Of a DNA stretch of 59,446 nucleotides, positions 2,565-56,621 are shown piece by piece. The position numbers and the translations under genes are program-made. Source of the DNA: Dehalococcoidia bacterium. Lineage in GTDB: Bacteria; Chloroflexota; Dehalococcoidia; Lucifugimonadales; UBA3495. Location: positions 1-59,446 of the forward strand of contig JAJDWF010000035.1 of NCBI GenBank assembly GCA_022825745.1, given 5' to 3'. The notes beneath the pieces were generated by a model. The model was not told where the DNA came from. It did no database searches and saw only the letters and a list, made by a program, of their open reading frames with translations. Positions within the stretch are counted from its first letter, which is position 1; each line of letters starts with the position of its first letter.

Positions 2565-3179
2565 CTACGGTATTTTGCCCTCCCGCTTCAATGCTACCAG
2601 TCGGGCGGTAGCGGCATCGTTCCGCGCCTGTTCCTCTGGCGTCTCCAGTGGGCGTTCGATCCGTTCAAGGAAGGGGTGGTTGAGTTCGTGCCAGAATACC
2701 TGCTCGGCTTGCACCATCTCGTCAAGCCGGTCGCTGATCAGCCGCGCCGCTACCACGGGGCGAGCAGGATATCCAGTTAGCCTACCCAGATGTTCGGCAG
2801 TCCGAATGACAGTTCTGGCGTCCCTCTCTTCTGCCACGTAAGCTATGACCACCGCTAGGTACACGGTATTATCTTTGCGGTCGGTAGTTTCCAGAATCAA
2901 AGGGGTAAGCAGGAAGTTATGCCGCTCAGCCAGAGGTATATCACCTTCCCAAGGCGGCGGGAGCAAAGCGACCTTTTCGCTAGAAGTGAGCGTTCTGGTG
3001 AGGCGCAGACCCATATCGTCGGCGATAAGAAAACCGTCGTCCTTCATTCGCTCCTGCATTGTCAATCTGAGAAACATCCGGTCGCCACCAAATTTGCCCC
3101 GACGTTCCATTTCATCATCGTACATACTGACCTCTGTATCTGACTGATTAGCGGTGTATGCCCAATACGAGTTTAGCAT
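2565..3179 (-). CDS. Hypothetical protein (possibly a degenerate PD-(D/E)XK-like family); start uncertain
   Basis: ORF fills the gap downstream of vsr; C-terminal YLAVVIAY...RLTGYPARPVVAA segment. Confidence 0.5.
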   Translation of the reverse strand: MLNSYWAYTANQSDTEVSMYDDEMERRGKFGGDRMFLRLTMQERMKDDGFLIADDMGLRLTRTLTSSEKVALLPPPWEGDIPLAERHNFLLTPLILETTDRKDNTVYLAVVIAYVAEERDARTVIRTAEHLGRLTGYPARPVVAARLISDRLDEMVQAEQVFWHELNHPFLERIERPLETPEEQARNDAATARLVALKREGKIP

Positions 3180-3199
3180 GGCACTCACCGACAACAGTG

Positions 3200-3625
3200 T
3201 CAGGGGCTGATGCCCTCGCCTTCCAGAAAAGCAACCAGTCGCTCAGCGGTAGCCGGCAAGTCCCGCAGCTGGCACTCCCAAACGGTAAGCACGGCCCAGC
3301 CCTGTTCCTCAAGCGAGACAACGTTGCGAGCGTCGCGGGCGTGGTTGCGACCCAGCTTCGCAATCCAGTATTCCCGGTTGGTGGCGGGGATACGCACTCG
3401 CGGGCAACCGTCGTGGCGATGCCAGAAGCAGCCGTTGACGAATACCACCTTGCACCGCGACGGGAAAACCAAATCGGGCCGACCCGGCAGGTCAGCCCGA
3501 TGCAAACGATACCGATAACCGAGGCCGTGCAACAACCGCCTCACCTGCATCTCCGGCTTCATGCCCTTCGACTTGACCCGCGCCATGATCCGGCTGCGGG
3601 CTTCGGGCGATACGGTGTCAGCCAT
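3200..3625 (-). CDS. vsr: Very short patch repair endonuclease Vsr
   Basis: RSRIMARVKSKGMKPE, LPGRPDLVF, FVNGCFWHRHDGC, TVWECQL; lies next to a C5-MTase. Confidence 0.95.
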   Translation of the reverse strand: MADTVSPEARSRIMARVKSKGMKPEMQVRRLLHGLGYRYRLHRADLPGRPDLVFPSRCKVVFVNGCFWHRHDGCPRVRIPATNREYWIAKLGRNHARDARNVVSLEEQGWAVLTVWECQLRDLPATAERLVAFLEGEGISP

Positions 3626-3638
3626 AGCAGAACGCCCG

Positions 3639-4736
3639 TCAGACCGCCAGCACTCTATGGTTTTGATTCTTAATCACCCGTCGATGGGATAGTTCCGCGT
3701 CTCGATTGTTCCCGTCTTGAATTGATCCGTTGTTGAGTTGCACCGAATCTGGATTGATTCCTACGCCCCGATTGTCGCGGTCGCTTCTCACGACTACATA
3801 GTGGAACACCAACTGGCGCGTACCACTACCGGCATTGTAATCAGCATTTCGAGTGTGTCTTCCGATACGGAAATGCAAGTGTGGATTGCCAGTAACGAAA
3901 ACTGTGGAATTGAAAGTGACCTGAGCAGCTATAGTCTCACCCACGCCGTATGTCTGACCTTGAATTGGACGCGAAACTATTTCTATGCTAACAATGCCGG
4001 GTCCCAATAACGTCAACCAATTGCTTTCATACCCAGCAGACCTTAGGATACTGCCTCGCGCCGCCGGAAACGGCTTTCGAATCTGAAAAGAGCGGGCAGA
4101 ACCGCTGACGTCCCGGTATATCCTAAATTGACTACCGTTGGGTTGCCAAGTGAACATATGTGGGCCAGTTTGACTTCCTAAATGCCCCTCAAGATTGTTT
4201 TCTTGATTGCGTGTCCAAGTGTAATCTGCTGGATCGTATGGAGTTGTTGAAACTTCAAAAATCTTGAACCGAAACTTCGCCATATCACGAATCAATACCA
4301 CAGTCCGCAAATTTGGATATTGATTAGTTGCCTCCGCGACTCGGTCATTCCAAATCTGCAAGACCTGATCTCCGGCAGTCTGAATGTCTGCTAAAGGCGC
4401 ATTGTTGCTGAAAGAATATCCTAGGGCATTCCTACCAGAAATGAGCGGTACGCGGGTTTCGGTTATGGGGTTATTGGAACCTATCGTCTTGGCCGACCAA
4501 GCGGTGCTGCCAAGTACGATATCTGCAATACCCAAAGGACTTTTTCTGTGTATGCCGTTGACTGCGGCAGCGAAAATATCGCCCCAATCATCGCCTGACA
4601 AGTCGCTCCTTCCGACCGCGCTCGAATAAACGATGTTGCTTGCGATCGTCTGAATGACGGTGTCGGGAATCTGGCCCAACGGATACGGCGTAGGGTTGCT
4701 CCATCCGCCGCGCAATCTCGGTCCTTGATAGGCCAT
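3639..4736 (-). CDS. Putative type II restriction endonuclease with C-terminal Ig-like domain
   Basis: Lies between the C5-MTase and vsr, lower GC than flanks, GGAGG RBS before ATG 4736, ADIV...WSAKT PD-(D/E)XK-like motif; last ~115 aa form a beta-rich Ig-like repeat. Confidence 0.65.
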   Translation of the reverse strand: MAYQGPRLRGGWSNPTPYPLGQIPDTVIQTIASNIVYSSAVGRSDLSGDDWGDIFAAAVNGIHRKSPLGIADIVLGSTAWSAKTIGSNNPITETRVPLISGRNALGYSFSNNAPLADIQTAGDQVLQIWNDRVAEATNQYPNLRTVVLIRDMAKFRFKIFEVSTTPYDPADYTWTRNQENNLEGHLGSQTGPHMFTWQPNGSQFRIYRDVSGSARSFQIRKPFPAARGSILRSAGYESNWLTLLGPGIVSIEIVSRPIQGQTYGVGETIAAQVTFNSTVFVTGNPHLHFRIGRHTRNADYNAGSGTRQLVFHYVVVRSDRDNRGVGINPDSVQLNNGSIQDGNNRDAELSHRRVIKNQNHRVLAV

Positions 4737-5643
4737 CTTGCACTTCCTCCAAAACTGCCTGCACCATAGGAACGGGAACGGCGTTGCCGGTCTGCTTGCG
4801 GATTTGCTGATAAGTTCCGGGCAGCTCAAACCGCTCCGGGAATCCTTGCAGCCGCAACATTTCTCGGGGCGTCAATCGCCTTTCGCCGTTAACCAGCAGG
4901 TAATTGTACGACGCTCCGGCGCGCAGGGCGCAGGAAAACGGGTGGCTAGACACGTTGCCGCCCTTGTTTTCGTGCCAGATTGATAGGTCGTAGGGGCTTT
5001 CGTGCTTTGCCAACCGCTTCTGGCGTATCGCGTCGCTGGCCATGTAGGTTGCCGGAACTTCTTTTTCCAAAACCTCCGACAGGGGCTGATAGTGACCCAT
5101 CGGGTCGGGCCACTCAAACGGAACAGAATGGTCGAGGAAACCTACGATGATTGTGCGCTCTCGCTTCTGAGGCAGTCCGAAATCAAGGGCGTTGAGAACT
5201 TTCCAGTCGGCGCGGTAGCCCAATTCGTTCAGAGCGGAGATTATCGCTTGCATCGTCCGGCCCCGGTTGTGGGTGGACAGCTGGCGTACGTTCTCTAAAA
5301 CGAACGCCGCCGGTTGTTTGGCGTCGATAATTTCCGCGACGTCGAAAATGAGGTTGCCACGATCATCGTCGAACCCGCGCATATCACCGATGATGCTGAA
5401 CGGTTGGCACGGGAACCCGGCCAGCAAGACGTCGTGGTCGGGTACGGATTCGGGTGCTATTTCGGTGATGTCGCCGCCTGGCTCCATGCCAAAATTCTGC
5501 TGGTAGGCGCGGCGCGCCTCGGCGTCAATGTCGCAGGCGAAGACGCAAGCCATACCTAAATTAGCAGCGGCTATATGAAAGCCACCAATGCCACAGAACA
5601 AATCCGTGAACGTCAGCGACAGCTTGTTGTCCCTATGGGCCAT
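4588..5643 (-). CDS. DNA (cytosine-5)-methyltransferase
   Basis: Motifs I (DLFCGIGG), IV (GFPCQPFS), VI (ENV), VIII (QKRER), IX (RRLTPRE) and X (GNAV). Confidence 0.97.
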   Translation of the reverse strand: MAHRDNKLSLTFTDLFCGIGGFHIAAANLGMACVFACDIDAEARRAYQQNFGMEPGGDITEIAPESVPDHDVLLAGFPCQPFSIIGDMRGFDDDRGNLIFDVAEIIDAKQPAAFVLENVRQLSTHNRGRTMQAIISALNELGYRADWKVLNALDFGLPQKRERTIIVGFLDHSVPFEWPDPMGHYQPLSEVLEKEVPATYMASDAIRQKRLAKHESPYDLSIWHENKGGNVSSHPFSCALRAGASYNYLLVNGERRLTPREMLRLQGFPERFELPGTYQQIRKQTGNAVPVPMVQAVLEEVQDGLSRTEIARRMEQPYAVSVGPDSRHRHSDDRKQHRLFERGRKERLVRR

Positions 5644-5765
5644 AACCCGTACAAAGCATCTCCATTTTCTGCTCCACAAGGTTATCAGGTTTGTCAAGGG
5701 GTTTTGCAGAAATTTTATGTAATTGCGGTCAAATTATCGCAATTTTCGTAAGCCGCGGACCTTTG

Positions 5766-7408: not shown

Positions 7409-9427
7409 CTACACCGCAGTCAGCCACCACCGCGCTTCGCCGGCTCCGCCGCCGCTGACGTTGACCTCCATCCCTTCCAGCAGCCACGCGCCGCCGATGC
7501 CCCGGCTCTCCGCGGCAACCTCCAACACGTCCGACAGCCGGCCTTCCACCACCGCCCGGCGGCTGCCGGCCCCGAGCAAAGGCAGCGTCGCTTCGAGCTG
7601 GGGACGCGGTTGGGAACGCTGCGCCAGCCGCGCCGCCGCCGCACCCCGGGCCGCCGCGTAGTTGTCGGTGTACCGGCAGTTGACCAGCCGGCCGCGTCCG
7701 GTGTCCAGGGGTAGGCCGGCGCCGCCGGATTCGGCACGAACGGCGGTGGAGGTCTGCGTCCGCCAGCAGTGGTTCGCATACAGGTCCAGGCTTTGCAGGT
7801 AGGCCGTATTCTGTCCACTGTTGCGGATGCGCAGCACGTGGCCCCGGCCGGCGATGCCCGACTGCGCCTCGGTGAGCAGCTCGACGGTGAGGTCGTCGGT
7901 AACGTCGTTGCCCATGCCGGCGGCGTCATCCGTCGCGGTGTAATCCACGCCGGCCATGGGCGCAGCGATGTCGTCAATCACGTCCCAGGTGTCCGTGGCC
8001 GCCAGCAATCCGCCGGAGCCGGATTCGCCGCCGCCCGGTATTTCCAGCGCCTCGTTGAGACTCCACACCTGCTGCCGGCCGGCATCCGACGAACGGCGGT
8101 AACGGAAAGTTACCGCGTCCTCCACAACATCCGCCCCGTCGTTCCGCTGGATGGCCGTCGCGTAAGGCCCGTCGCCGTCGGCGGTGTCGGCAATCGTGAA
8201 CCTGGCCAACGACACCGGATTGAGATGGCGGTGAACGTCGGCCCGCCGCGATGCCGCTTCCAGCCGGACGCGACCCAGACCGTCGGCGTAGATCAAGCCG
8301 TGCTCTTCCCGCTGCAACCTACGCAACGCCCGGCCCGCCGACACGTCCCACACCGAGCGCGGCCCTCCCGTCAGCAGCGTCCGCCCATCGTCCAACGCAT
8401 AGTCGCCGGGAACCAGGCCGGCCCAGCCCAGGATCGCCGCCGCCACGTTGCCGGAGCGCATCAGGCCGCCGGCCAGCGCCCGGTGCAAGGGTACGGTGTC
8501 CAGCCGCTGCATCGGGTCGGCGGCGGTGACGCGACACACGCCGGCCTCGTAATCCGGGTTGACGTCGGTGATGCGTCCGCTGAACAGGCTGCGCCCCACG
8601 CCGAATTCGCCCCAACGGTCCTGCGCGTTGCGAAAACCGTGCCACAGGCCGTGCCGGCTCGAGTCCGGCGCATCGGCGATGGCAGTAGCCGACAGGATTT
8701 CCCGCCGCCTCGCGCCCGGTTGGGCCAGTGCGACGGTGTAAACGCGCACGCTGTCCGCGGTCTGCTCAATCTCCAGGTCATACCACGCCCCCGTCTCCAG
8801 CGCGCCGCCGTCGGACAGTCGCGTAACCGTTCGCCCCGACACCCGCTCCAGGATGGTGGCGTCGCTGGCGAACCGCAGGCGCAGGCAGTCGTCCCGGGCG
8901 ACGCACCGCAGCACAAACCCGCCCAGCCCGTTGCTGCCGCGACGGTAGCGCGCCGTCAGCGTCGCCAGCAGGTCGCCCGTATCCAGCAGGGCTACCGCAT
9001 CCGACGGCGGCCAGCCCCTGCCTTGTCCCATCGCCGTTCCGTCCGCCACCACAAAACCGTTGCCGGCGACGCCTGCCACATCCCACTGCTCGCCGCCGTA
9101 CGCCGTTCGGCCATCAAGGTCAACGGACGCCGCACCGCCGGCAGCAAAGTCGTCGTGGATCCGGTTGGCGCGCAGCCACACCGGACGACCCGGCCGCACG
9201 TTGGCGCCCAATGGGCCGCTGCTATTCCCCGGCGTGTACCGATGGTCGTGGTTCCGCAGCGTGATCTCCAGTTCCGCCGGCGGCGCAAACTCCGGCACCG
9301 GCAGCCCGCGCCGGCCCCACCGCCAGCGCAAACCCAGCACGTCGGCGGACACGTCCGAGCCGTCCGCATCCCACGTGCCTGCGTTCGCCCAATCGACCAG
9401 GATTTGCCAGCGAATTCCCGCGATCAT
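7409..9427 (-). CDS. Phage tail/tail-tip-like protein (672 aa)
   Basis: Last gene of the capsid operon, TAATG-coupled to the upstream gene; beta-rich with LEITLRNHDHRYTPGN and LFSGRITDV segments reminiscent of minor tail proteins. Confidence 0.5.
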   Translation of the reverse strand: MIAGIRWQILVDWANAGTWDADGSDVSADVLGLRWRWGRRGLPVPEFAPPAELEITLRNHDHRYTPGNSSGPLGANVRPGRPVWLRANRIHDDFAAGGAASVDLDGRTAYGGEQWDVAGVAGNGFVVADGTAMGQGRGWPPSDAVALLDTGDLLATLTARYRRGSNGLGGFVLRCVARDDCLRLRFASDATILERVSGRTVTRLSDGGALETGAWYDLEIEQTADSVRVYTVALAQPGARRREILSATAIADAPDSSRHGLWHGFRNAQDRWGEFGVGRSLFSGRITDVNPDYEAGVCRVTAADPMQRLDTVPLHRALAGGLMRSGNVAAAILGWAGLVPGDYALDDGRTLLTGGPRSVWDVSAGRALRRLQREEHGLIYADGLGRVRLEAASRRADVHRHLNPVSLARFTIADTADGDGPYATAIQRNDGADVVEDAVTFRYRRSSDAGRQQVWSLNEALEIPGGGESGSGGLLAATDTWDVIDDIAAPMAGVDYTATDDAAGMGNDVTDDLTVELLTEAQSGIAGRGHVLRIRNSGQNTAYLQSLDLYANHCWRTQTSTAVRAESGGAGLPLDTGRGRLVNCRYTDNYAAARGAAAARLAQRSQPRPQLEATLPLLGAGSRRAVVEGRLSDVLEVAAESRGIGGAWLLEGMEVNVSGGGAGEARWWLTAV

Positions 9428-9852
9428 TACCAAACTCCCAGATCAACCGGCCCGTCCTGCCGGAACGCCGCCTCAAACCGCACCGGCTCGCCGGCCTTGC
9501 TGCTGATGCGGTAGGACAGGCACACGAACCTCCCCGACACCCGGCGCTGGCCCGGCGCGTTGCCCACCGGCCCGTATTCCACCCGCACGGCGCGACCGAC
9601 CACGCCCGACAGCACGGCGTCCGGCCCCATGTCCGGCGTGTCGTCCCAACGCCCGGACAACGTGAACGCCTGCGCAGCCTCCGACCCGGCCACGGTTCGT
9701 ACCGCCGTGTCGTTCACACCGGTAACGTCGTGAGCCGCCAACTCGCGCCCCAGCGGCCCGACGCGCTCCACCCAAGGCGACAGGTCACGCAGCGCGCCGC
9801 CGGCGTCCTCCACCGCCACGTAGCTGTACCCGGCGCTGGCGTATCCGGTCAT
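9427..9852 (-). CDS. Phage tail-tube-like protein (141 aa)
   Basis: Size, position after the head-tail adaptor, and the HDVTG...FTLSGRWD...EYGPVG...SYRISS...VRFEA pattern. Confidence 0.55.
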   Translation of the reverse strand: MTGYASAGYSYVAVEDAGGALRDLSPWVERVGPLGRELAAHDVTGVNDTAVRTVAGSEAAQAFTLSGRWDDTPDMGPDAVLSGVVGRAVRVEYGPVGNAPGQRRVSGRFVCLSYRISSKAGEPVRFEAAFRQDGPVDLGVW

Positions 9853-9854
9853 GC

Positions 9855-10697
9855 TCACACCCCCAGCACGGCGTTGCGGCGGCGGTACGGGGCCAGCAGC
9901 GTGCGGACCGTGGGGGAGACGCCGCCAACGTCTCCCCCATCGCCCTCCGGCAGCGCGAAAGGTCCCGCCAACCTCTCGCGCCACCAGACGGCGGCCTGCA
10001 GCAGGCACGCTTCTGATACCCCCTTCGGGTACCGGTGAACCAGTATTGCCGACCCTGCGGCGTGCGCTGACCGCTCAGTTCCGTTGACCCCGCGCTGCGC
10101 CGTCAGCGTCAACTCACCCTGCCCATCGTCAGCTACGCCAGCGACGTACATCTGCTCGTCGTCGATGCGGACGGTGTGGCCGGCCGACAGCGTGGCGCCG
10201 GCGCCTGGAGCGGACACGGCAACCGTTTCATCGTCAGCCGCCGTGTTTCCATCCGTCCGCAAAGCGGTATCCTCCCGCACGTCGCCGTAGCCCCAAACCC
10301 CGCTCACCACCACGCCGGCCCGGCTCAGCGGGAACCGGCGACGCGCCCCCGACGCCAGCATGATGCGGGTGTAGGGTCGGCCGCCCGGCTCCGTGGGCGC
10401 GGCGTTCAGCGGATACAGCAGCCAGTCCGCCGCCGGCCAGCCGACCCACTCGCCCGAAGCTTCCCGCACGCGCACCTCGCTGGCCACAACCAGGTCCGGC
10501 ACCGTCAGCGACGCTTTGCCCGTACCGTCGAAACGACGCTCCCCGCGCATCGCGCCGAACTGCCGGCCGCAGTAGCCGTCAATCCAGCGGGACGCCGCCT
10601 CCAGCAGCGTCAGCAGCCGCCCGTCGTGAGCGTCATCGGGCGCGTTCAAAACCGATGCCGATTTCAACGTCGCCAGGTCCGCGTAAGCATTTGTCAT
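9855..10697 (-). CDS. Phage head-tail connector/adaptor (gp6/gp15-like) with inserted beta domain
   Basis: YADLATLK, LLEAASRWIDGYCGRQF, PKGVSEACL, LLAPYRR; immediately downstream of the capsid gene. Confidence 0.75.
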   Translation of the reverse strand: MTNAYADLATLKSASVLNAPDDAHDGRLLTLLEAASRWIDGYCGRQFGAMRGERRFDGTGKASLTVPDLVVASEVRVREASGEWVGWPAADWLLYPLNAAPTEPGGRPYTRIMLASGARRRFPLSRAGVVVSGVWGYGDVREDTALRTDGNTAADDETVAVSAPGAGATLSAGHTVRIDDEQMYVAGVADDGQGELTLTAQRGVNGTERSAHAAGSAILVHRYPKGVSEACLLQAAVWWRERLAGPFALPEGDGGDVGGVSPTVRTLLAPYRRRNAVLGV

Positions 10698-10716
10698 GCC
10701 ATCTTTCTCCGTAGGC

Positions 10717-10750
10717 TGTCATTGCGAGGAGCGACGCGGCAATCTCGTCG
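10717..10750. repeat. REP/RPE-like palindromic element (TGTCATTGCGAG...GGCAATCTCGTCG)
   Basis: Same 12- and 13-nt ends as the copy at 12133-12174. Confidence 0.7.
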
Positions 10751-10769
10751 AGGCCGCGCCGCGCCGTCG

Positions 10770-12101
10770 CTACACCGTGATGTTGTACTGCAACGCCGTG
10801 TGCGTCGCCGACGCCCGCGCGCCCGTCCGTTCCATGAACGCCAGCCTCATGCTCACCACCATGATGTTTTGACGCTTCTGGATGTCCCGCGTCGTCTCGA
10901 TCATCAGCTCCCGGCGGAACCCCAGACGCCACTGGGTCCGGTTCACCGCCAGCAGCCGGCCCTTGGTGTTGCCGTTGCCGCCGTCGGTCACCTTGCCGTC
11001 GGCGTCCGATTTCGCCATCTGCTCCGACACGATGACCGGGATGCCGTCCACCTGCGCCAGCTGACCGTTGAGCAGCGTGGCCTGCGGCCCCAGCTTGTCC
11101 AGCGTGCGGAACTCGTCGATGGCCAGCGACTTGATGTACGTGCCCACGTCGGCGACGTAGGCCAGCTCGGAGGGACGCACACCGTACTTGCCCAGCAGAC
11201 CCCGCGCTTCGTTGAACATATCGGCGCTGGGCGCGGCGGCGTGGTTGTTGGCCTGCCCGTCGTTGTCCACCAGCGGCAGGTGCAGCAGCCCGTCGAACCC
11301 CAGCAGCCAGTGCGCCTTGCCGCCCATGGACGCGCTGATGGTCGCGCCGTCGGCGTTGATGTTGTTCTGCGTCGTGCGGTCGGCGTTCAGCAGCACGTCG
11401 TCGATCACCTCAACGGCGTTGCGCACCAGCGTGCTCCGCACCTCGGCGGCCATGGCGATTACGGCGTCCTCGTCCAGCGTCAGCGACCATGGCACCTCGG
11501 CCACCAGCTCGTAGGCGGTCAGCGTCTGCCGCGCCGTGGTCAGCGCCGTTTCCGTGGTCGCGGTGTTCTCCACCCCCGGATACCACGCCACGTTGCCCAG
11601 TTGCAGCGGGATCTCAAAGGGGTTGGTGGGCATGTCCACCCGCGTGAACAGCGACGCGACGTGCGTGTCCACGTTGACGTCGGCCCACAGCGCCGCCGCC
11701 TCGCCGGTGGGGACCAGTTCGTCGCCGGCGCCGGCAGTGGTGCTGTCCATGGCGGCCTTCAGGTTCGCCTGCCAGTCGGACAGCAGGCGAGGGTTGCCGT
11801 CGCCGGGCTCCCGCTGCTGCGACGCCAGCACGCTGCGCACGCAGGCCAGGTCCAGCGCGTCCATGCCCTGGTACTTGCCGAATGGCACCCGGGGCCGCTC
11901 GCCGGGATTGCCATAACGCGCCAGCATCGCCTGCCGTTCACCGGCGCGCTGCTTTTCGGTAAGCTCGCCCACGGCGCGGCTGAGGCGGCCCAGCTCCTCC
12001 TGCAACGGCGGAATGTCCGCGTCCAGCCGCTGCCGGTAGAAATCCCGCGCCTCCGCCACTTCGTTCTTGATGGTTTCCAGTTCCCACGTTGAAAGCGTCA
12101 T
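10770..12101 (-). CDS. HK97-fold major capsid protein with N-terminal coiled-coil (delta) domain
   Basis: N-terminal heptad region, GDELVPT, PWSLTLDEDAVI, LLNGQLAQVDGIPVIVSEQM; directly downstream of an HK97 protease. Confidence 0.85.
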   Translation of the reverse strand: MTLSTWELETIKNEVAEARDFYRQRLDADIPPLQEELGRLSRAVGELTEKQRAGERQAMLARYGNPGERPRVPFGKYQGMDALDLACVRSVLASQQREPGDGNPRLLSDWQANLKAAMDSTTAGAGDELVPTGEAAALWADVNVDTHVASLFTRVDMPTNPFEIPLQLGNVAWYPGVENTATTETALTTARQTLTAYELVAEVPWSLTLDEDAVIAMAAEVRSTLVRNAVEVIDDVLLNADRTTQNNINADGATISASMGGKAHWLLGFDGLLHLPLVDNDGQANNHAAAPSADMFNEARGLLGKYGVRPSELAYVADVGTYIKSLAIDEFRTLDKLGPQATLLNGQLAQVDGIPVIVSEQMAKSDADGKVTDGGNGNTKGRLLAVNRTQWRLGFRRELMIETTRDIQKRQNIMVVSMRLAFMERTGARASATHTALQYNITV

Positions 12102-12132
12102 AAATTCTCAAACTCCTGCTCGTTAAGCGAAA

Positions 12133-12174
12133 TGTCATTGCGAGTCCGCCGGGGCGGACGTGGCAATCTCGTCG
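12133..12174. repeat. REP/RPE-like palindromic element, second copy
   Basis: TGTCATTGCGAG-TCCGCCGGGGCGGACG-TGGCAATCTCGTCG with an internal hairpin. Confidence 0.7.
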
Positions 12175-12179
12175 GAAAA

Positions 12180-12914
12180 TCAACTCCTCAGCCCCCGCAG
12201 CAACCCAACCACCTCCGCCGCTACGCCACCCCGGTGCGCAAGCAACGCGCCCCGGTTGGCCGGCACCGGCACCGCGCTGATCTCCAGCAACTCCTGCTCC
12301 AGGAACCGGATGCCCAGGAACGCGCCGGTGCGGGCATCCCGCCGTTCCTCGAACCGCAGCGGGCGGAACCCTACGGACACCCCCTGCTGGTAGCCCCGGC
12401 GGTACAGCCCCTCAACCTCCCGGGCGAACTCGGTGTCCGCAAACTCCAGGCGAGCCAATAGCGCGCCGCCGTCGCGCCACACCGATTGCGCCCGCCCGAT
12501 GGCCGGCCGGCGATAGTCATGGGCCCACAGCACCACCGGGTTCTCCCGGTAGGCGTCCAGCCGCCAGCCTTCCGGCGCAACGGTATCGCCGTGCCTGTCC
12601 ACCGCCCCCGTGGACGCTACGAACGTCAGCGTCTCCCCGTCCGCCTGCCGGTGGCGAGCCTGCCCTTCGACAGGCTCAGGGCGAGCGGCCATCCGTCCCT
12701 GGTGAGCGGCCTCGCGCTCACCGTGAGGAGTCTCCCGCTCATGGTGAGGAGTCTCCCGCTCATGGTGAGCCTGTCGAACCGCCGCCGGTTCCGCCAGCGT
12801 CCCCCACTTGCACACCATGGGCGCGTCGCCCATCCCGCAGGCGTAGACGGACAGCGCCCGCAACAACACCGCCCGGTCGTCCGCCAGGTCGGGCCACCGG
12901 CTCCCGTTCATCAT
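12180..12914 (-). CDS. HK97 family phage prohead protease
   Basis: FVASTGAVDRHGD, NPVVLWAHD, GVSVGF, LLEISAVPVPAN; AAGGAGG RBS before ATG 12914. Confidence 0.9.
   Translation of the reverse strand: MMNGSRWPDLADDRAVLLRALSVYACGMGDAPMVCKWGTLAEPAAVRQAHHERETPHHERETPHGEREAAHQGRMAARPEPVEGQARHRQADGETLTFVASTGAVDRHGDTVAPEGWRLDAYRENPVVLWAHDYRRPAIGRAQSVWRDGGALLARLEFADTEFAREVEGLYRRGYQQGVSVGFRPLRFEERRDARTGAFLGIRFLEQELLEISAVPVPANRGALLAHRGGVAAEVVGLLRGLRS
12663..12780. repeat. In-frame palindromic insertion in the protease gene (13-bp inverted repeat plus 2x21-bp tandem repeat)
   Basis: TTCGACAGGCTCA at 12666-12678 and TGAGCCTGTCGAA at 12766-12778; GTGAGGAGTCTCCCGCTCATG at 12723 and 12744. Confidence 0.8.
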
Positions 12915-13054
12915 CGCAACCTCCTTGCCTTGATCACATCGGATCTCGCGCCGGCGCGACGACGAATCGGCTGGGTAACAGCCGGCAAAAAGCCGGCGGA
13001 ACCGACCCGGCATCAGGTCAGTCCCACCGGCAGCTATGCTGATTGATTCAGTTC

Positions 13055-13084
13055 AGGCTAACGCGTGAGTTGCAGCAGTGTCAA
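13055..13084 (-). promoter_or_regulatory. Sigma70-like promoter for the capsid operon
   Basis: TTGACA-18 nt-TAGCCT on the minus strand, about 140 nt upstream of the protease ATG. Confidence 0.5.
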
Positions 13085-13110
13085 CGCCCGGATGTCACCG
13101 TGCAGCAAAA

Positions 13111-44635: not shown

Positions 44636-45745
44636 GTGAACACCATGCCCGACGCAGCGCCATCGCCCGACCCGACCCTGCACCTGCCCAGCCTGGTCAT
44701 CAAAAACTTCCGCGGCATCGACGAACTGACGATACCGCGGCTGGGTCGCGTGACGCTGCTGGCGGGGAAGAACGGCGTCGGCAAAACCACAGTGCTGGAT
44801 GCGGTGCGGGTTTATGCAGGCCGAGGCCAACTCCACATTCTTGACGATGTATTGGTCAAACGGGGGGACGCTTTCGTCGCGGCCAACCAGAAAGATGGAC
44901 AATACGTTGTTGCGGACTGGTACGCGCTTTTCACGGATCGTCGCAACTCATCCGAGATTGCAATCTCAATTGGATCCGGCGCAAGCTCCGATGTACTTCA
45001 GATCGGTTGGCAATCCGGTGTTAGATTGCAGTCAGATCAACCTACGATGCTGGGGCCTAACGAATTTTTGAGTGGAGCGCGGCCATCGTTGGTCATGCGG
45101 CTGGGTGATTCCAAAATCTACCCTCCATACGATGGCGACGTTGTTTCATTGCCTTCTACCATTCCATGCAACACCCTAGGCCCTAATGGGGCAACTGATG
45201 AAACGGTCGAACAATATTGGAGCGAGGTGGCTCTCACGCCCGACGAAGACCGGGCGCTCGAAGCACTCAACCTAATTACCGCCGCAGAAGTTGAGCGAGT
45301 CGCCGCCTTGGGTCCACCTATAAGCACAAATAGCAAAGCAACCCAGCCACGGCGGATGATGGTCAAAGTAAAGGGTGTTGATTACCAAGTACCCCTGCGC
45401 TCCCTCGGCGACGGTGCGATGCGTACCTATGCCGTCGCTCTCGCCCTTGCCAAAAGCAGCGGCGGCTTCCTACTCATCGACGAAGCCGAAAACGGCATCC
45501 ACCACTCAGTGCAGGCCAAGTTCTGGAAGATGGTGTTGCAGACTGCTCAGCGCAACAACGTGCAGGTGCTGGCTACCACGCACAGCTGGGACTGCGTAAC
45601 CGGGTTCGCTCAGGCCGCCAACGAGTTGGAGGATGTGGAGGGTTTGTTGGTCCGCTTGGAGCGTCCGCCTGCGGGACTTCGCGTTTTCTCCTACGATGAA
45701 TCCCGCTTGAATGCGGCTGTGAAATACGACATTGAGGTGCGCTAA
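44636..45745 (+). CDS. ABC-type (AAA_15/AAA_21-like) ATPase
   Basis: IKNFRGI, GKNGVGKT, SLGDG, LLIDEAENGIH, ATTHS. Confidence 0.88.
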   Translation: MNTMPDAAPSPDPTLHLPSLVIKNFRGIDELTIPRLGRVTLLAGKNGVGKTTVLDAVRVYAGRGQLHILDDVLVKRGDAFVAANQKDGQYVVADWYALFTDRRNSSEIAISIGSGASSDVLQIGWQSGVRLQSDQPTMLGPNEFLSGARPSLVMRLGDSKIYPPYDGDVVSLPSTIPCNTLGPNGATDETVEQYWSEVALTPDEDRALEALNLITAAEVERVAALGPPISTNSKATQPRRMMVKVKGVDYQVPLRSLGDGAMRTYAVALALAKSSGGFLLIDEAENGIHHSVQAKFWKMVLQTAQRNNVQVLATTHSWDCVTGFAQAANELEDVEGLLVRLERPPAGLRVFSYDESRLNAAVKYDIEVR

Positions 45746-45747
45746 CA

Positions 45748-46389
45748 GTGATAATCCCCCGTCCGGGCGCATCCGACCCACTGCTAGTGGTGGAGGGGCA
45801 AGACGACTTGCACGTAATCAGGCACTTGGCCGAACATAGCGATCCATCGCTGACGTTCGGAATCCGGGACTACGAGGGTATTGAGAACGTACTCGCCAGC
45901 ATGAACGGCCACATTGACACCTCCGGTCGGCCCGCGGTTGGTTTTGTAGTGGACTCAGACCGCGATGTCAGCCGAACGTGGCGCCGTATTCGCGGCGAGT
46001 TCTTGAATACGATACGCGCCATTCCTTTGCCTGATAACCCGGAACCGAACGGTACTATCATCGCCGGAGATCCGCTTACTGGCGACCCCCGCATCGGCGT
46101 ATGGTTGATGCCGGACAATTCGAACGACGGTGAACTGGAAAACTTCGTCGCCGACATGATTCCCGCCGGCGACTCGGTTTGGCCACTGGCGCAGCAATAC
46201 ATTGACGGGATACCGCCGATGGACAGAAAGTTTGCGGACAGCAAAACGCTGCGCGCCCAGATTCACGCCTGGCTGGCCGCCCGCGAGGACCCGAGGCAGA
46301 TGGGCCTGGCTATCCGAACTCGCGACCTTGACGTTGCCAATCCGCTATCCCGGCGGTTTCTCGACTGGCTTTCCCGCCTTTTTCGCTAG
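45748..46389 (+). CDS. DUF3226-like TOPRIM-fold protein
   Basis: LLVVEGQDD, VVDSD (DxD), WLMPDNSNDGELENF; 2 nt after the ATPase. Confidence 0.75.
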   Translation: MIIPRPGASDPLLVVEGQDDLHVIRHLAEHSDPSLTFGIRDYEGIENVLASMNGHIDTSGRPAVGFVVDSDRDVSRTWRRIRGEFLNTIRAIPLPDNPEPNGTIIAGDPLTGDPRIGVWLMPDNSNDGELENFVADMIPAGDSVWPLAQQYIDGIPPMDRKFADSKTLRAQIHAWLAAREDPRQMGLAIRTRDLDVANPLSRRFLDWLSRLFR

Positions 46390-48125: not shown

Positions 48126-50129
48126 ATGCGCCGCAGACTACCGTTTTTGAAGTTCGTTGGCTTGTCGATAGTCAGCGTGTTGCTACTGGTCGGAGCACTA
48201 GCCTGCACGGGTGGTGATAGCGAGCCAGAACCGACTCCTGATCTGGACGCTACCATCGTCGCCGTCGTCGCGTCCGCCTTGCCCACCGCGACGCCGACTC
48301 CTGACCTGGACGCTACCATCGTCGCCGTCGTCACGTCCGCCTTGCCCACCGCGACGCCGACACCCGAGCCCACGCCGTCCCCAACGCCAGAACCGACAGC
48401 AACGCCAGACATTGCTGCAACTATAGCCGCGTCGGTTTCCGCCACCATCGCCGCCGTACCGCCTACTCCAATGCCCCTGCCAACCTCAACGCCAGTCCCA
48501 ATCCTGCGACCGACGCCCATGCCCATCGCGGATGTCCCGGTTGCCAGCGGCAACCCTCGGCTGGCAGCCGGCGGCAAGCACACCTGCAGGATAGGGGTTG
48601 ACGGGGCCGTCCTCTGTTGGGGCGATGACGGTAAGGGGCAGTCCACGCCGCCGGAGGGAGTAATGTTCACCGCCGTCACTGCCGGCTATGAACACACCTG
48701 CGGTATCACCGACACTAGCATAGCGGTATGCTGGGGCGATGACAGCAGCGGCCAATCCACCGCGCCGGCAGGAACGTTCACTGCCATTGACGCCGGACGG
48801 GCGCATACCTGTGCGGTGGGTCAAGACGGAACAGCCCAATGCTGGGGCAGCGACGAATATGGGAAAACGGATGCGCCAGCGGGTCGCTTTGTCGTTGTGT
48901 CCTCCGGCGAAGAGCACAGTTGCGGCCTGCGCGAGGGCGGCGTCCTGGAATGTTGGGGAGACAACCACTATGGACAGTCCACGCCGCAAGGCGACCGTTT
49001 CCACGCCGTCAGTGCTGGATCAGCGCATACTTGCGGCATAAAGGCGGATGGAAGCATCGCCTGCTGGGGTGCCAACCCTGACGGACAAGCGCCGGCGATG
49101 GTAGAGGGTTCTTATCACGCAGTCAGCGCGGGGCGCAAGAGCACGTGTGCCGCAACGACCGGCGGCGAATCCATCTGCTGGGGCGACAGCGATGCCGAAA
49201 TATACGGCGGCTCTTACCTATTGATCAGCGTCGGCGACGAGCACGCTTGCGGCCTAAAAGCGGACGACAGCGTAGAATGCGCCGGCAGCAACCGTTACGG
49301 GCAAAGCGTGCTGCCATCTGACGGCACGGGCGATTTCACTTCAGTTTCTGCCGGACGCACGTACACTTGCTGGGTTAAGGGAGACGGAACCCTTACTTGC
49401 ATGGGTGAACTCCATGGTGGTGTCGCCTCACCGGAAGGTTCTTTCAGGTCGGTAAGCGTCGGTGAGGGGCACGCTTGTGGTGTGCGTACGGATGGCAACG
49501 TAACCTGTTGGGGCGACAACTCCTTTGGACAGGCGTTCCCACCCCGTGGCGTTTTCCTATCGGTCAACGCAGGGAACGGGTTCACTTGCGGCGTGAGGGT
49601 GGATGGTACTGTCGCCTGCTGGGGCGAGGATTGGATGATTGAAGGCACTCCAAGCGAAGGTTCTTTCCAATCCGTCAGCGCCGGTTACGAGCATATATGT
49701 GGAGTACGCACGGATGGAACTGTAGTGTGTTGGGGCAATGATAGTGGCGGGAAAACTTCAGCACCTCAAGGCAAGTTCGCTGCGGTTAGTGCAGGCATCA
49801 ATGACACTTGTGGCCTACGACTGGACCATGGAGTGGAATGCTGGGGACACTTTTACGGTGGTGGTTCCGGCAACATCTCACCCCCGGCGGGACGTTTCCA
49901 ATCCATCAGTTCTGGGATGTCCGATTACGCTTGTGGAGTGAAAACGGACGACACAGTGGTTTGCTGGGGCTATGTGCTAGCTGATAGCGACCATGCCGGG
50001 CAAGCCACGCCACCAAAGGGTTCCTTCCAGTCCGTTAGCGCAGGAACCTTCCACACATGTGGAGTGAGGACGGATGGGCGTGTAGTTTGCTGGGGCGACA
50101 ATAAGTACGGGCAGGCCGCGCCGCCGTAG
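48126..50129 (+). CDS. Lipoprotein with Pro/Thr stalk and RCC1/BLIP-II-like repeats
   Basis: Signal peptide with ALA-C lipobox, PT-rich region, about 14 repeats of VSAG..HTCG...G.V.CWG.N..GQ. Confidence 0.85.
   Translation: MRRRLPFLKFVGLSIVSVLLLVGALACTGGDSEPEPTPDLDATIVAVVASALPTATPTPDLDATIVAVVTSALPTATPTPEPTPSPTPEPTATPDIAATIAASVSATIAAVPPTPMPLPTSTPVPILRPTPMPIADVPVASGNPRLAAGGKHTCRIGVDGAVLCWGDDGKGQSTPPEGVMFTAVTAGYEHTCGITDTSIAVCWGDDSSGQSTAPAGTFTAIDAGRAHTCAVGQDGTAQCWGSDEYGKTDAPAGRFVVVSSGEEHSCGLREGGVLECWGDNHYGQSTPQGDRFHAVSAGSAHTCGIKADGSIACWGANPDGQAPAMVEGSYHAVSAGRKSTCAATTGGESICWGDSDAEIYGGSYLLISVGDEHACGLKADDSVECAGSNRYGQSVLPSDGTGDFTSVSAGRTYTCWVKGDGTLTCMGELHGGVASPEGSFRSVSVGEGHACGVRTDGNVTCWGDNSFGQAFPPRGVFLSVNAGNGFTCGVRVDGTVACWGEDWMIEGTPSEGSFQSVSAGYEHICGVRTDGTVVCWGNDSGGKTSAPQGKFAAVSAGINDTCGLRLDHGVECWGHFYGGGSGNISPPAGRFQSISSGMSDYACGVKTDDTVVCWGYVLADSDHAGQATPPKGSFQSVSAGTFHTCGVRTDGRVVCWGDNKYGQAAPP
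48231..48356 (+). repeat. 63-bp tandem duplication (2 copies, 2 mismatches) encoding PTPDLDATIVAVV(A/T)SALPTAT
   Basis: Direct comparison of 48231-48293 with 48294-48356. Confidence 0.9.
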
Positions 50130-50312
50130 CGATGCGCTTCCGATTTGCAGCGCTGTATCGCTATATAGAGCGAGAAGAGCCTCAATCATCCTAGACCATT
50201 GGCGAAGGACAGGTTACTGTTGTAGGATGAGAGTGGAACGACTGCCCTAGATTGGACTGCTATTTGAGAATAGCAAGAATTTATAAATTTGACAGCCTTA
50301 AGGAGGATCGAA

Positions 50313-51131
50313 ATGGCGACGAGATTTGACCAGATTTCGAACCGAGCGAAGGAGTTGCTGACCGACGCTTTAGCGGTTGACGGACCCGTTAAAGGCATGC
50401 TTTCGCTTTCTCCTGCCATGGGCGGAGGCGAACGCCTCGTCATCGGCAATCACTACCAAATGCTTTATGGTGATGACATCGCCGCCACTCAAATGGCATT
50501 CTACGAGTTGGCGGATCTCCGGCTAATTGACCAAATTGCTACAGGCGGTTACATGGTAACCCCATTGGGTTGTCATTTGGAGATTGTATTCAATGGCTCT
50601 AAGCCCTACCCGAGAGCTATTGAAGAAACCAGTCCAAAGGTTGAGCATACTATCGAGGACATTCCGAATCAGCAGGCTAGTAAGGAAGTTTTCGTTGTTC
50701 ATGGCAGGGACGTCGGAGTAAGGGATAGTGTCGTTCGATTCCTAAGTGATCTGCAACTCAAACCTATTGTCTTGCAAGAGCGGCCGAGCAAAGGCCGTAC
50801 GATTGCGGAAAAATTTGAGGAGCACGCAAGAGAAGCAGGATTCGCCGTCGTTCTCTTTACGCCGGACGATGAAGGGGCTTTAGTCGGAGAGTACAGCAAT
50901 CCCCAACTACGGGCACGTCAAAACGTGATATTCGAGCTCGGCTTCTTCATAGGGAGGTTAGGCCGCGACAAGGTAAGCGTCTTGTACAAAGGCGACGTGG
51001 AGATACCGTCGGACTACGCAGGTGTAGAGTACATCCCTTTTGATTATGAAGGCGGCTGGAAGTTGAAACTCATAACTGAGCTTCAGACTGCCGGGTTTGA
51101 CGTTGATGCGAACCAAGCTACACGACGATGA
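50313..51131 (+). CDS. TIR-like domain protein (CAP12/Pycsar-type TIR) with an unrecognised N-terminal domain
   Basis: VFVVHGRD, FAVVLFTPDD, RARQNVIFELGFFIGRLGR, PSDYAGVEY; AAGGAGG RBS; lower GC. Confidence 0.85.
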   Translation: MATRFDQISNRAKELLTDALAVDGPVKGMLSLSPAMGGGERLVIGNHYQMLYGDDIAATQMAFYELADLRLIDQIATGGYMVTPLGCHLEIVFNGSKPYPRAIEETSPKVEHTIEDIPNQQASKEVFVVHGRDVGVRDSVVRFLSDLQLKPIVLQERPSKGRTIAEKFEEHAREAGFAVVLFTPDDEGALVGEYSNPQLRARQNVIFELGFFIGRLGRDKVSVLYKGDVEIPSDYAGVEYIPFDYEGGWKLKLITELQTAGFDVDANQATRR

Positions 51132-51473: not shown

Positions 51474-51980
51474 TCAGCGGGCCGGCGGATTGAAGGGCGG
51501 CATCGGTGGAGGCAGGTCGATGCTTTCGTCGGCAAGGGCCTCTGCTTCCGAGAGGAGCAGGCGGTCGATGATCCTCTGCTGCGCGGGGGTAGGCGTAAAG
51601 TTCCGGTTCGGTCCCCGTTCCCGGGCTTCCCACAGCAAGGGTATCAGCGAATTAACGTCGGCAAGCAAACCCGTTACCAGCGCTTCGGCCAACCAGTCCT
51701 CGTAGTAGTTGTCGTGCAGCTGGTCGGCGATGGCTTGCAGATGCCGCATCTGCGGCTGTTGGAACTCTTCGGACAGCAAAGCAACGATGTCCCGGCGCAA
51801 GTTGTGTGAGCGGTGTCGCCAATTGCGGTCTTCGGCGATGGCTTTCACGGCCTGGGCCACGGCGCCGGAGGCCTTGTCCGAAGCCTGCACCCGGTCGCCC
51901 ATGGTATGCAGCTCATAATTGGCCTGCTCCACCAGGCGGCGGCTGAGGTCGGTGTGGCGGTTGGCATTTGCAATGGACAT
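51474..51980 (-). CDS. PaREP1-family (HEPN-like fold) protein
   Basis: GDRVQASDKASGAVAQAVKAIA...WRHRSH...LHDNYY; paralog of 56129-56503. Confidence 0.75.
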   Translation of the reverse strand: MSIANANRHTDLSRRLVEQANYELHTMGDRVQASDKASGAVAQAVKAIAEDRNWRHRSHNLRRDIVALLSEEFQQPQMRHLQAIADQLHDNYYEDWLAEALVTGLLADVNSLIPLLWEARERGPNRNFTPTPAQQRIIDRLLLSEAEALADESIDLPPPMPPFNPPAR

Positions 51981-52032
51981 GGCCGATAGGTCTCCGTGAG
52001 GCATGGTAACATAGCCGCCTTGCCGCCTGCGC

Positions 52033-53793: not shown

Positions 53794-54347
53794 CTCCCCA
53801 GGATCTCCCGCACCGGGCAGCTGAACCCCGGCAGAACCTCACCCCCGTCCAGCGTATCGTCCATGGTAAGTACGGCCGTGGGCAGGTTCGGCTGGCGCAC
53901 CCGTATCGTTCCGGTTTCCGGGTTTATCACCAGCGCCATCCGCACGCCGAAATCCAGCCACATGGTGGCCTTGTCATCGATTTCCCGCTCGGAGTCGCTG
54001 GGCGACTTGATCTCCACAACGAGGTCGGGCGGAACGGGGCAGTAACCATCAATGTCGGCATCCAGGGACAGGCGCTCCGCGGAAACGTAGGCTATATCCG
54101 GCTCCCGCACCGTGTCCGGGTCGGTTTCCAGCAACACGCCGGCATCGGAGCCGAAAACATGGCCCAGTCCCGCCGGCGCAACGTGGGCATCAAACCGCCC
54201 CCCGAGCCGCATTGCTATCTTGCCGTGTCTCACTCCTGATGCCATCGTTTCGTGCAGCACCCCGCGTATCAACTCGCCCTTTACGCCCTTGCTGTACAGG
54301 CGCAACAGGTCGTCAGCAGTCAACAGCTTGGGTTTCACCGTAGTCAT
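53790..54347 (-). CDS. Uma2 family (DUF820) protein
   Basis: ELIRG, VREPDIAY, PDLVVEIKSPSD, GEVLPGF. Confidence 0.9.
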   Translation of the reverse strand: MTTVKPKLLTADDLLRLYSKGVKGELIRGVLHETMASGVRHGKIAMRLGGRFDAHVAPAGLGHVFGSDAGVLLETDPDTVREPDIAYVSAERLSLDADIDGYCPVPPDLVVEIKSPSDSEREIDDKATMWLDFGVRMALVINPETGTIRVRQPNLPTAVLTMDDTLDGGEVLPGFSCPVREILGS

Positions 54348-56128: not shown

Positions 56129-56503
56129 TTACTCGTTGTCCAGAAGCGCCAGCATTTGACCAACGAAGTAATGCACTCCTGGTCGGTTTGCTTCAACTTC
56201 GTAGTCTTCCATGTTGTCGTGAAAGAAGTTCTCGTGGAATTTGCTGGCGGCCAAATAGCCGTTCAGAAGAGTCGGGTCATGGTATTGCCGGGACAAGGCT
56301 TCAACCGCCTGCTGCATGGCCCGGTGGCTCTTGTAACGCCAACCCCGCTGCTGGCAGATGGCGATAATCGCCTGCGTCGCCGCTCCATAGAGTTTCTCCG
56401 AGCCTTGCAGGTGGTCGCCGGCGGCAAACTCCCGGTCAGAGGCCAGGAGGAAGTCGCGAGCGGTTTGCGCGTGTTCGGCGGCGGTCATTTCCCTGGTGGT
56501 CAT
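56129..56503 (-). CDS. PaREP1-family protein
   Basis: GDHLQGSEKLYGAA...RGWRYKSH...FHENFF. Confidence 0.8.
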   Translation of the reverse strand: MTTREMTAAEHAQTARDFLLASDREFAAGDHLQGSEKLYGAATQAIIAICQQRGWRYKSHRAMQQAVEALSRQYHDPTLLNGYLAASKFHENFFHDNMEDYEVEANRPGVHYFVGQMLALLDNE

Positions 56504-56621
56504 GCTTACTCTCCGGAGCGGATCAGAGTTGAATTGTACCACCCACCGCCGGCGCATGACCGAAAAGGGCCGCTGCATTGTCGCGCAGCGGCCCTGTACA
56601 GACGGTTTTGGTCAGCAACAG

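Follow-up and report, generated by a model that had tools for sequence, protein, structure and literature searches.

The stretch of DNA analysed here (59,446 nucleotides (nt), below called the window) is the entire contig C124 of a metagenome-assembled genome (MAG) of a Dehalococcoidia bacterium; this genome, G000, has a size of 2.99 Mb in 149 contigs, a completeness of 92% and a GC content of 63.7%. The window carries on its minus strand a compact operon of phage-type head and tail genes, which is the subject of this analysis together with a second locus found elsewhere in the same genome. From the sequence alone, an earlier note had described five intact structural genes at 7409-13013, and the list of open reading frames (ORFs) and searches of Pfam and PHROG bear this out: the genes encode a prohead protease, a major capsid protein of the HK97 family, a head-tail adaptor, a tail tube protein and a protein of 672 amino acids (aa) (Table 1). 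The finer details that the note had given were also found on reading the sequence, namely a TAATG overlap between the tube gene and the 672-aa gene, a gap of 2 nt between the adaptor and tube genes, and a strong Shine-Dalgarno sequence (AAGGAGG) preceding the ATG at 12914, the likely start of the protease. The GC content was said to be at or above that of the housekeeping genes and is 68-71.5% over 7-13 kb, compared with 63.7% for the genome; both GC and GC at third codon positions (GC3) of the operon are at host level or above. A Pfam scan of the 43 further ORFs of the window matched no integrase, portal, terminase, tape measure or lysin family, again as described, nor any other phage family, and returned housekeeping genes (aconitase, glutamine synthetase, ammonium transporters, DnaX, RecO, UvrA and NAD synthase among them) or defence-type genes (a C5 methylase with Vsr, a TIR protein). 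Genome-wide there are only two tyrosine recombinases, on contigs C125 and C115, and none in the window or on C43, the contig of the second locus.

The protease (PF04586 Peptidase_S78, E 1.2e-10; phrog_80, E 8.7e-19) and the capsid protein both match their Pfam families weakly. The N-terminal part of the protease is variable among species, with a tblastn coverage of the protease from 0.47 to 1.0, and in the window this region contains the tandem repeat HHERETP HHERETP HGEREAA (12700-12790, minus strand). In the capsid protein, which is the sole member of its family in G000, about 120 N-terminal residues lie outside the Pfam match, and they would fit a delta-type domain, typical of phage proheads. 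The adaptor matches PF05135 under the family cut-off; in its extra C-terminal domain, residues 150-239 show a weak similarity to a J-domain chain for tip attachment (8rk3, E 1e-5).

That portal and terminase genes might lie as orphans in the rest of the genome had been raised in the earlier note, and both were found, adjoining each other on contig C43. This second locus (C43:38140-40869) consists of a 66-aa zinc-ribbon ORF, the large terminase and the portal. The portal (PF04860, E 7.7e-72) is the only one in G000, and among solved structures its profile agrees best with the portal of RcGTA, the gene transfer agent (GTA) of Rhodobacter capsulatus (6tba/6te8, E 3.4e-33), with 8cez nearly equal. 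The terminase ORF just upstream of it (phrog_2, E 4.2e-43), the only large terminase found in the genome, contains GNGLGKG and VVVDEAE, which we take to be the Walker A and Walker B motifs of the enzyme, as well as GNPT; its C-terminal domain aligned with the nuclease domain of chain 8dkr in two sub-threshold stretches that span the aspartate motifs. The zinc-ribbon ORF is present upstream of the terminase in 22 of 24 loci of the genus and in 4/4 loci from other families. It matches zinc-ribbon families of Pfam only below threshold and a phage family of unknown function (phrog_7550) at E 7.3e-6, and it occupies the usual position of a small-terminase gene, a role that it might have here.

Table 1. 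Particle genes and associated elements in the window and on contig C43
Feature	Coordinates	Strand	Details
Prohead serine protease (S78)	12180..12914	-	244 aa from ATG; open frame extends to 13013
HK97-family major capsid protein	10770..12101	-	443 aa; PF05065 E 7.8e-8; phrog_10 E 4.9e-11
Head-tail adaptor	9855..10697	-	280 aa; phrog_442 E 1.6e-15, residues 3-140 (gp6-like N-terminal half)
Tail tube (major tail) protein	9427..9852	-	141 aa; phrog_10528 E 8.4e-15, near-full profile
672-aa distal-tail protein	7409..9427	-	672 aa from ATG; 674 aa from upstream TTG
Promoter-like element TGACA-N8-GTTGAC-N18-TAGCCT	13055..13097	-	upstream of protease
Leader hairpin with T run (terminator-like)	12985..13031	-	between promoter and protease start; 16 predicted pairs
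Short dispersed repeat GAGATTGCC...CTCGCAATGAC	10718..10746	-	capsid-adaptor spacer; second copy at 12134-12170, protease-capsid spacer
66-aa zinc-ribbon ORF (CxxC...CxxC, FSPP)	C43:38140-38340 (L003:8141-8341)	same as terminase	directly upstream of terminase

The distribution of these genes was followed in 60 related genomes, 36 of the same genus and 24 from other families of the order, and smaller sets of 19-24 genus genomes, depending on the gene, were used for the detailed examination of intactness and selection. The relatives are MAGs named Dehalococcoidia, Chloroflexi/Chloroflexota or SAR202, several of them from sponge bins; they are related to each other and are not independent samples. 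The capsid gene is present in 36/36 genomes of the genus, with 81-97% identity, and the portal and the 672-aa protein are each present in 35 of the 36. In the other families the corresponding numbers are 8, 9 and 3 of 24, all 8 capsid-positive families being portal-positive as well, and the families without either gene have mostly small genomes (1.3-2.4 Mb). An even draw from the class gave a capsid relative in 1 of 120 other genomes (E<=1e-20). A search of 185,579 species genomes gave 128 capsid-encoding stretches, and the 80 listed all bear the name Dehalococcoidia, Chloroflexi/Chloroflexota or SAR202.

The address of the head-tail genes is the same across the genus: a VOC gene, then protease, capsid, adaptor, tube and 672-aa gene, then a tcuA-like gene, in that order. 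Unrelated genes are inserted in some species (Fic, an FAD protein, IrrE/HTH, PaREP1/HEPN, VWA), with PaREP1/HEPN and VWA genes, on the opposite strand, separating the tube gene from the 672-aa gene in about 10 of 22 species, and G000 has the most compact version of the locus. Terminase and portal are always adjacent to each other and away from the capsid locus. In closed genomes the distance from the capsid to the terminase and portal is 17 kb in two cases (G011, G013), 106-398 kb in nine others and 1.0-2.0 Mb in three more (G020, G036, G012), and in the single-contig genomes of the genus the genes are split as in the MAG studied here. Outside the genus, G037 has all genes in one same-strand cluster of 17 kb, broken by a transposase and lineage-specific ORFs; the extra ORFs of this cluster, including a LamG protein, have no homologue in G000, and two further genomes (G047 and G056) are split in different ways. 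The simplest history would be a single ancient integration, after which the parts were scattered independently and all of them retained.

Selection was estimated as the median pairwise ratio of non-synonymous to synonymous substitutions (dN/dS; Nei-Gojobori), taken at dS of about 0.6-1.0. The values were 0.12 for the capsid (22 genomes), 0.13 for the portal, 0.25 for the tube, 0.28 for the 672-aa protein, 0.30 for the adaptor and 0.33 for both the protease (19 genomes) and the terminase, compared with 0.05 and 0.06 for the flanking tcuA and VOC genes and 0.06 for aconitase, used as the host marker. All seven particle genes are therefore well under 1, which indicates purifying selection. The five head-tail genes are uninterrupted in 22/22 genomes examined in detail, the portal in 24/24 and the terminase in 23/24. 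In the same genome pairs, the particle genes reach 0.8-1.5 times the dS of aconitase, and each gene's pairwise protein distances follow the aconitase distances (Mantel r 0.64-0.89, p 0.0005, from 2000 permutations over 21 genomes); the unlinked portal locus co-diverges likewise. The earlier note had regarded patchy occurrence at variable loci, or dN/dS near 1, as signs of a decayed prophage, and what we observed was a near-universal, syntenic set of genes under constraint.

The two loci also share their control signals. Upstream of the protease, TTGACA-18-TAGCCT had been proposed as a promoter; the element is present at 13084-13055 and its architecture is kept in 20 of 22 genus loci, but a generic sigma-70 scan does not accept it, giving 0 sites there because the -10 matches in 3 of 6 positions only. 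Comparison of species gives a longer pattern, TGAC(A/G)-N7-9-GTTGAC-N16-19-TANNNT, which was found upstream of the protease in these 20 of 22 loci and upstream of the zinc-ribbon ORF in 18 of the 19 packaging loci with enough sequence. A search of the whole genome (3.0 Mb) for the strict pattern gave 4 sites, of which 2 are those of the head-tail and packaging loci, and five Markov-simulated genomes gave 0. Both loci thus have conserved non-coding control elements of the same kind. The packaging promoter is accompanied by the palindrome GAAC-N4-GTTC, of the LexA type of Gram-positive bacteria. Of 19 species, 8 carry it without mismatch, 7 (G000 among them) with a single one (GTAC), and 4 not at all. 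It is located either 9-10 nt downstream of GTTGAC, between the hexamers, or 30 nt downstream, after the -10. Near the promoters of lexA and recA in G000 there are boxes with one mismatch, which is a frequent kind of site in this genome; the exact box does not occur in the window.

A putative hairpin followed by a T run lies in the leader of the head-tail operon. It is near-invariant in 20 of 22 genus loci, unique in the genome and without a match to any Rfam family, and the predicted structure is supported by conservation and energy, not by covariation. A promoter followed by a conserved terminator resembles the arrangement of antiterminated phage late operons, which suggests that the operon might be controlled in a similar way.

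The 672-aa protein had no Pfam or PHROG match, and a profile search of the PDB gave no match at E<=1. Its family profile collected 3517 relatives at E<=0.001; in 20 remote relatives that were scanned, most matched phrog_5313 (unknown function) and a few matched tail fibre or minor tail PHROGs weakly, and a 75%-identical homologue led, in a protein atlas, only to clusters of hypothetical viral proteins and to leads of the LamG type. The tube and the 672-aa protein found no match by tblastn in 50,697 deposited phage records. Relatives of the 672-aa protein, 21-23% identical, are encoded on seven IMG/VR contigs, and three of these (L149, L150, L153) carry adaptor, tube and 672-aa homologue in the same order as G000, while a fourth (L151) carries tube and homologue. 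The gene order in L151 is tube, a 122-aa ORF in the chaperone position, a 701-aa tape measure (phrog_991, E 2.9e-62) and a 738-aa homologue of the 672-aa protein. Because this homologue directly follows the tape measure, the 672-aa protein can be assigned to the distal-tail position of siphophages.

No tape measure family was matched in G000, nor in five genomes of the genus of which four are single-contig and one two-contig. In G000 neither a chaperone gene nor a tape measure gene separates the tube from the 672-aa gene, where stop and start overlap, and the tape measure is the only part of an HK97-like siphophage module that Pfam and PHROG did not find. Since the tape measure is without a match and the tube stop overlaps the next start, the tail is likely to be a stub. 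Two ORFs of 573 aa and 463 aa, situated between the tube and the 672-aa gene in relatives, were considered as candidates for the tape measure and rejected as wrong-frame readings over the opposite-strand PaREP1/HEPN and VWA genes.

Following these analyses, the gene set can be described as intact, single-copy, split over two loci, fixed in place and vertically inherited across the genus, and vertical inheritance probably extends across the order. We consider it very probable that these are domesticated particle genes maintained by the host. It is also probable, although with less assurance, that they constitute a domesticated, split particle system resembling a GTA, one that would make particles and transfer DNA. 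GTA-like transfer of DNA as the function receives from us about even credence, or slightly better. The most specific version is offered tentatively, as slightly less likely than not: a GTA of a new family, independently domesticated in this SAR202-type order of Dehalococcoidia, many of whose genomes are from sponges. It would have an HK97-type head, a terminase aided by the zinc-ribbon protein instead of a classical small terminase, a stub tail lacking a tape measure, a dedicated promoter type that co-ordinates the scattered genes, SOS-type repression of the packaging genes, and antitermination of the head-tail operon in the manner of phage late genes. The earlier note had proposed a retained, split, GTA-like module as opposed to random prophage decay, and this proposal is supported by the second locus, by the universality and synteny of the genes, by dN/dS and by co-divergence. 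The alternative that it offered, a nanocompartment, is unsupported because a DNA-packaging terminase and a portal are conserved together with the shell genes.

In such a system, the proteins would form a protease-matured head of the HK97 type, the terminase would fill the head with DNA by way of the portal, and the adaptor, the short tube and the 672-aa tip protein would attach to it. The tail would be stubby through loss of the tape measure gene of the phage ancestor. Because the genes are scattered and include no replication or integration functions, the particle would probably be unable to hold the whole of its own gene set and would enclose host DNA, in the manner of a gene transfer agent. 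Expression would probably be gated, with the LexA-type palindrome present at the packaging promoter in most species, and the head-tail operon may be controlled by antitermination at its terminator-like leader, as phage late genes are. The genome encodes a ComEC homologue, which is common in bacteria and proves nothing.

A number of findings do not favour this interpretation and have to be set against it. The dN/dS values of 0.25-0.33 are relaxed in comparison with the flanking genes, and aconitase is not a fully independent host marker because it is near the capsid locus in some genomes. The set is also not complete everywhere: G030 has a frameshift in the terminase gene, the portal gene is broken in both G007 and G010, 6 of the 36 genus genomes have a capsid gene that is cut short or interrupted (some of these perhaps contig breaks), and G032 has kept protease, capsid and adaptor and gives no match for the tube, the 672-aa gene or the portal. 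No lysis, small-terminase-family, head-closure or tail-completion genes were identified, and a tube without a tape measure gene may not assemble a working tail. Among the sequencing runs searched, no RNA run containing the stretch was listed. On the side of control, no regulator gene was identified, the head-tail promoter is without a LexA-type box, the LexA-like box at the packaging locus of G000 has one mismatch and 52 such boxes exist in the genome, and the pairs of the leader hairpin are kept by identity or one-sided changes, with 0 double compensatory changes. The other two sites of the promoter pattern, on C60 and C67, were considered as a way to missing particle parts and rejected, as they precede unrelated genes that do not follow the particle genes in their occurrence; the C60 site precedes a multi-copy ORF of about 107 aa and the C67 site a 1003-aa ORF with a weak methyltransferase match.

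The main rival to the function of a GTA is that the particle is made, but is selected for something else, such as the release of DNA, the killing of neighbours in sponge tissue, defence against phages, or the supply of heads that borrow the tails of infecting phages in the way of capsid-forming satellites. We regard this as unlikely, though much less so than the explanations that follow. With no tape measure found, the tail may be incomplete alone, and the locus is in relatives a hot spot of defence-type insertions (Fic, HEPN/PaREP1, IrrE), to which further defence-like genes in the window may be added; a LexA-like operator would also fit a stress response. However, selection has kept the tube and tip genes in 35 of the 36 genomes of the genus, so that the particle has tail parts of its own, and the conserved terminase and portal point to the packaging of DNA. 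Movement in the manner of a satellite is not available to the element, which has no integrase or replication module and whose loci are far apart.

That we are dealing with a decaying cryptic prophage, kept by chance and without present function, is very improbable. It would explain why only part of a phage genome is present, why unrelated genes have been inserted inside the cluster, and why broken copies exist in G032, G010, G007, G030, G028 and G036. Neutral decay would leave stops and frameshifts at the observed dS, whereas the frames are intact, constrained and located at the same address across the genus, and the promoter and leader, which are non-coding, are conserved too.

Even less credence can be given to a protease-matured compartment of the HK97 fold which, like an encapsulin, would hold cargo instead of DNA. 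Within the window a shell and a protease do occur without packaging genes; but the portal and terminase co-occur with the capsid in each of the 8 other families that have the capsid and in 35 of 36 genus genomes, their locus has the promoter type of the capsid locus, adaptor, tube and tip genes would have no role in a closed shell, and the N-terminus of the capsid is of the delta type typical of phage proheads. Equally implausible is an active temperate phage or satellite whose remaining genes escaped detection in a 92% complete MAG of 149 contigs, as the single-contig genomes of the genus are split in the same way, no tape measure was found in the four single-contig genomes and the two-contig one, the dS equals that of host genes, the distances track the host marker, and GC and GC3 are at or above host level. 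A prophage, intact or cryptic, would typically have an integrase, attachment sites and a lysogeny module, be patchy among strains and deviate from its host in composition or dS. Here no integrase stands at either locus, the genes are universal in the genus and host-like in dS and GC, although attachment repeats were not searched for; nor is there an integrase, replication or regulatory module of a satellite beside either locus, and the address is fixed and the layout split.

Gene transfer agents, or viriforms, form a functional class; PMC10883770 and PMC9953437 are among the papers on it. The members of the class make particles that enclose largely random host DNA and bring it to recipients, their genes are too dispersed or too large for one head to pass on as a full set, and production is controlled by the host and ends in lysis. 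The system described here shares with that class a phage-derived set of head, packaging and tail genes in the host chromosome, vertical inheritance, purifying selection, split loci, the lack of integration and replication genes nearby, and sequence signals that suggest control of a host type. It differs in its host, a member of the Chloroflexota, and in having only 7-8 recognisable genes, among which no tape measure or lysis gene was identified. The GTAs include RcGTA, CcGTA, BaGTA, VSH-1, Dd1 and VTA. RcGTA, whose portal is Rcc01684, resembles our system in its HK97-family portal, S78 protease, HK97 capsid, gp6-like adaptor and small tube, a likeness at the level of the HK97 superfamily only, and the host phylum differs. 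The RcGTA cluster g1-g15 of Alphaproteobacteria includes a tape measure and the distal tail proteins g12-g15, whereas here no tape measure was matched and the tip protein belongs to an unrelated, uncharacterised family, which places the system outside the RcGTA type (Rhodogtaviriformidae). It would thus be GTA-like by its logic, from a lineage unrelated to RcGTA and with fewer parts.

The closest viral counterparts are the uncultured siphophages of IMG/VR already mentioned (L149, L150, L151 and L153), which have homologous tube and 672-aa-type proteins in the same order. They differ from the present genes by a GC content of 38-49% and identities of only 21-35%; L151 also carries replication genes, and at the place where L151 has the 122-aa ORF and the tape measure, L149, L150 and L153 have a gap of 2.3-2.4 kb. 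Capsid-forming phage-inducible chromosomal islands (cf-PICI) are mobile, patchy and helper-dependent elements with integrase and replication genes and without tail genes. They too combine chromosomal genes for head, protease, portal, terminase and connector in the absence of a complete phage, but here tube and tip genes are present, the address is fixed and the loci are distant. Encapsulins are shells of the HK97 fold that lack portal and terminase and take up cargo proteins bearing targeting peptides; here a portal and a terminase co-occur with the capsid under selection, and the capsid gene is followed by genes for neck and tail.

Searches of open-access full text and of bioRxiv yielded no account of a GTA from Chloroflexi, Chloroflexota or SAR202, and the main text of a sponge metaproteome study (PMC6081418) does not mention phage or capsid. 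If the proposal is true, this would be the first GTA in the Chloroflexota, and it would provide a route of gene exchange inside sponge microbiomes, among symbionts of the SAR202 type. GTAs are known from a handful of lineages, with detailed work mostly in Alphaproteobacteria, and a further, unrelated domestication in an abundant, uncultured lineage of the sea and of sponges would show that DNA-packaging particles run by the host are a recurrent outcome of phage capture. With seven or eight genes and no tape measure gene, the system could reveal the minimum required for such a particle. The conserved promoter, operator and leader hairpin would be handles on the way in which a host controls scattered genes derived from a virus.

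Some observations on the relatives and on the surroundings of the two loci may be recorded separately. In G032 the head-tail locus (L028, C1:1950000-1966999) has the usual flanks, with Fic, VWA and other ORFs in place of the two tail genes (tube and 672-aa), apparently a case of partial loss in nature. The terminase of G035 (L145) has an in-frame linker insertion of about 55 aa, without a stop, between the ATPase and nuclease domains, and that of G025 (L128) has about 42 extra aa in the same place according to a single tblastn alignment; this extra sequence is absent from G000. On C43, on the strand opposite to the terminase locus (C43:31824-37804; L003:1824-7804), there are genes for two very large surface-type proteins, one of 875 aa with TIG and the other of 1082 aa, in which fn3, He_PIG and Ig domains were matched. 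Pieces of the latter recur about 5 kb from the terminase in G017 and G002, as chance neighbours or perhaps as fibre-like parts.

The dispersed repeat GAGATTGCC...CTCGCAATGAC is present in 7 copies on 6 contigs of the genome, two of them in the operon, and is not specific to the locus; tandem copies of its CTCGCAATGAC half stand upstream of the terminase locus in G020 and G013. The ORF of about 107 aa on C60 (C60:40296-40655, and nine other places) belongs to a group of ORFs with 10 copies in G000 and as many as 38 in relatives; 10 of the 36 genomes of the genus have it, and so does one other family of the order. A site of the promoter pattern precedes one of the copies.

Other parts of the window contain further genes of the defence type. 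Beside the tcuA-like gene, an island of low GC (52-57%) at 2565-5697 is probably a restriction-modification unit, with a C5 cytosine methylase (4588-5697), a Vsr mismatch endonuclease (3200-3625) and two ORFs without a Pfam match (2565-3194 and 3639-4829). A candidate defence pair, consisting of an AAA_15/AAA_21 ATPase (369 aa) and a DUF3226 protein (213 aa), directly follows uvrA at 44636-46389, and a candidate defence island at 48126-51131, with 51-58% GC, encodes an RCC1-repeat protein (667 aa) and then a TIR effector of the CAP12/Pycsar type (280 aa). Two Uma2-family endonuclease genes and two genes of the PaREP1/HEPN family are located at 94-696, 53790-54347, 51474-52004 and 56129-56578, and the PaREP1 genes are of the same family as the insertions inside the particle cluster of relatives.

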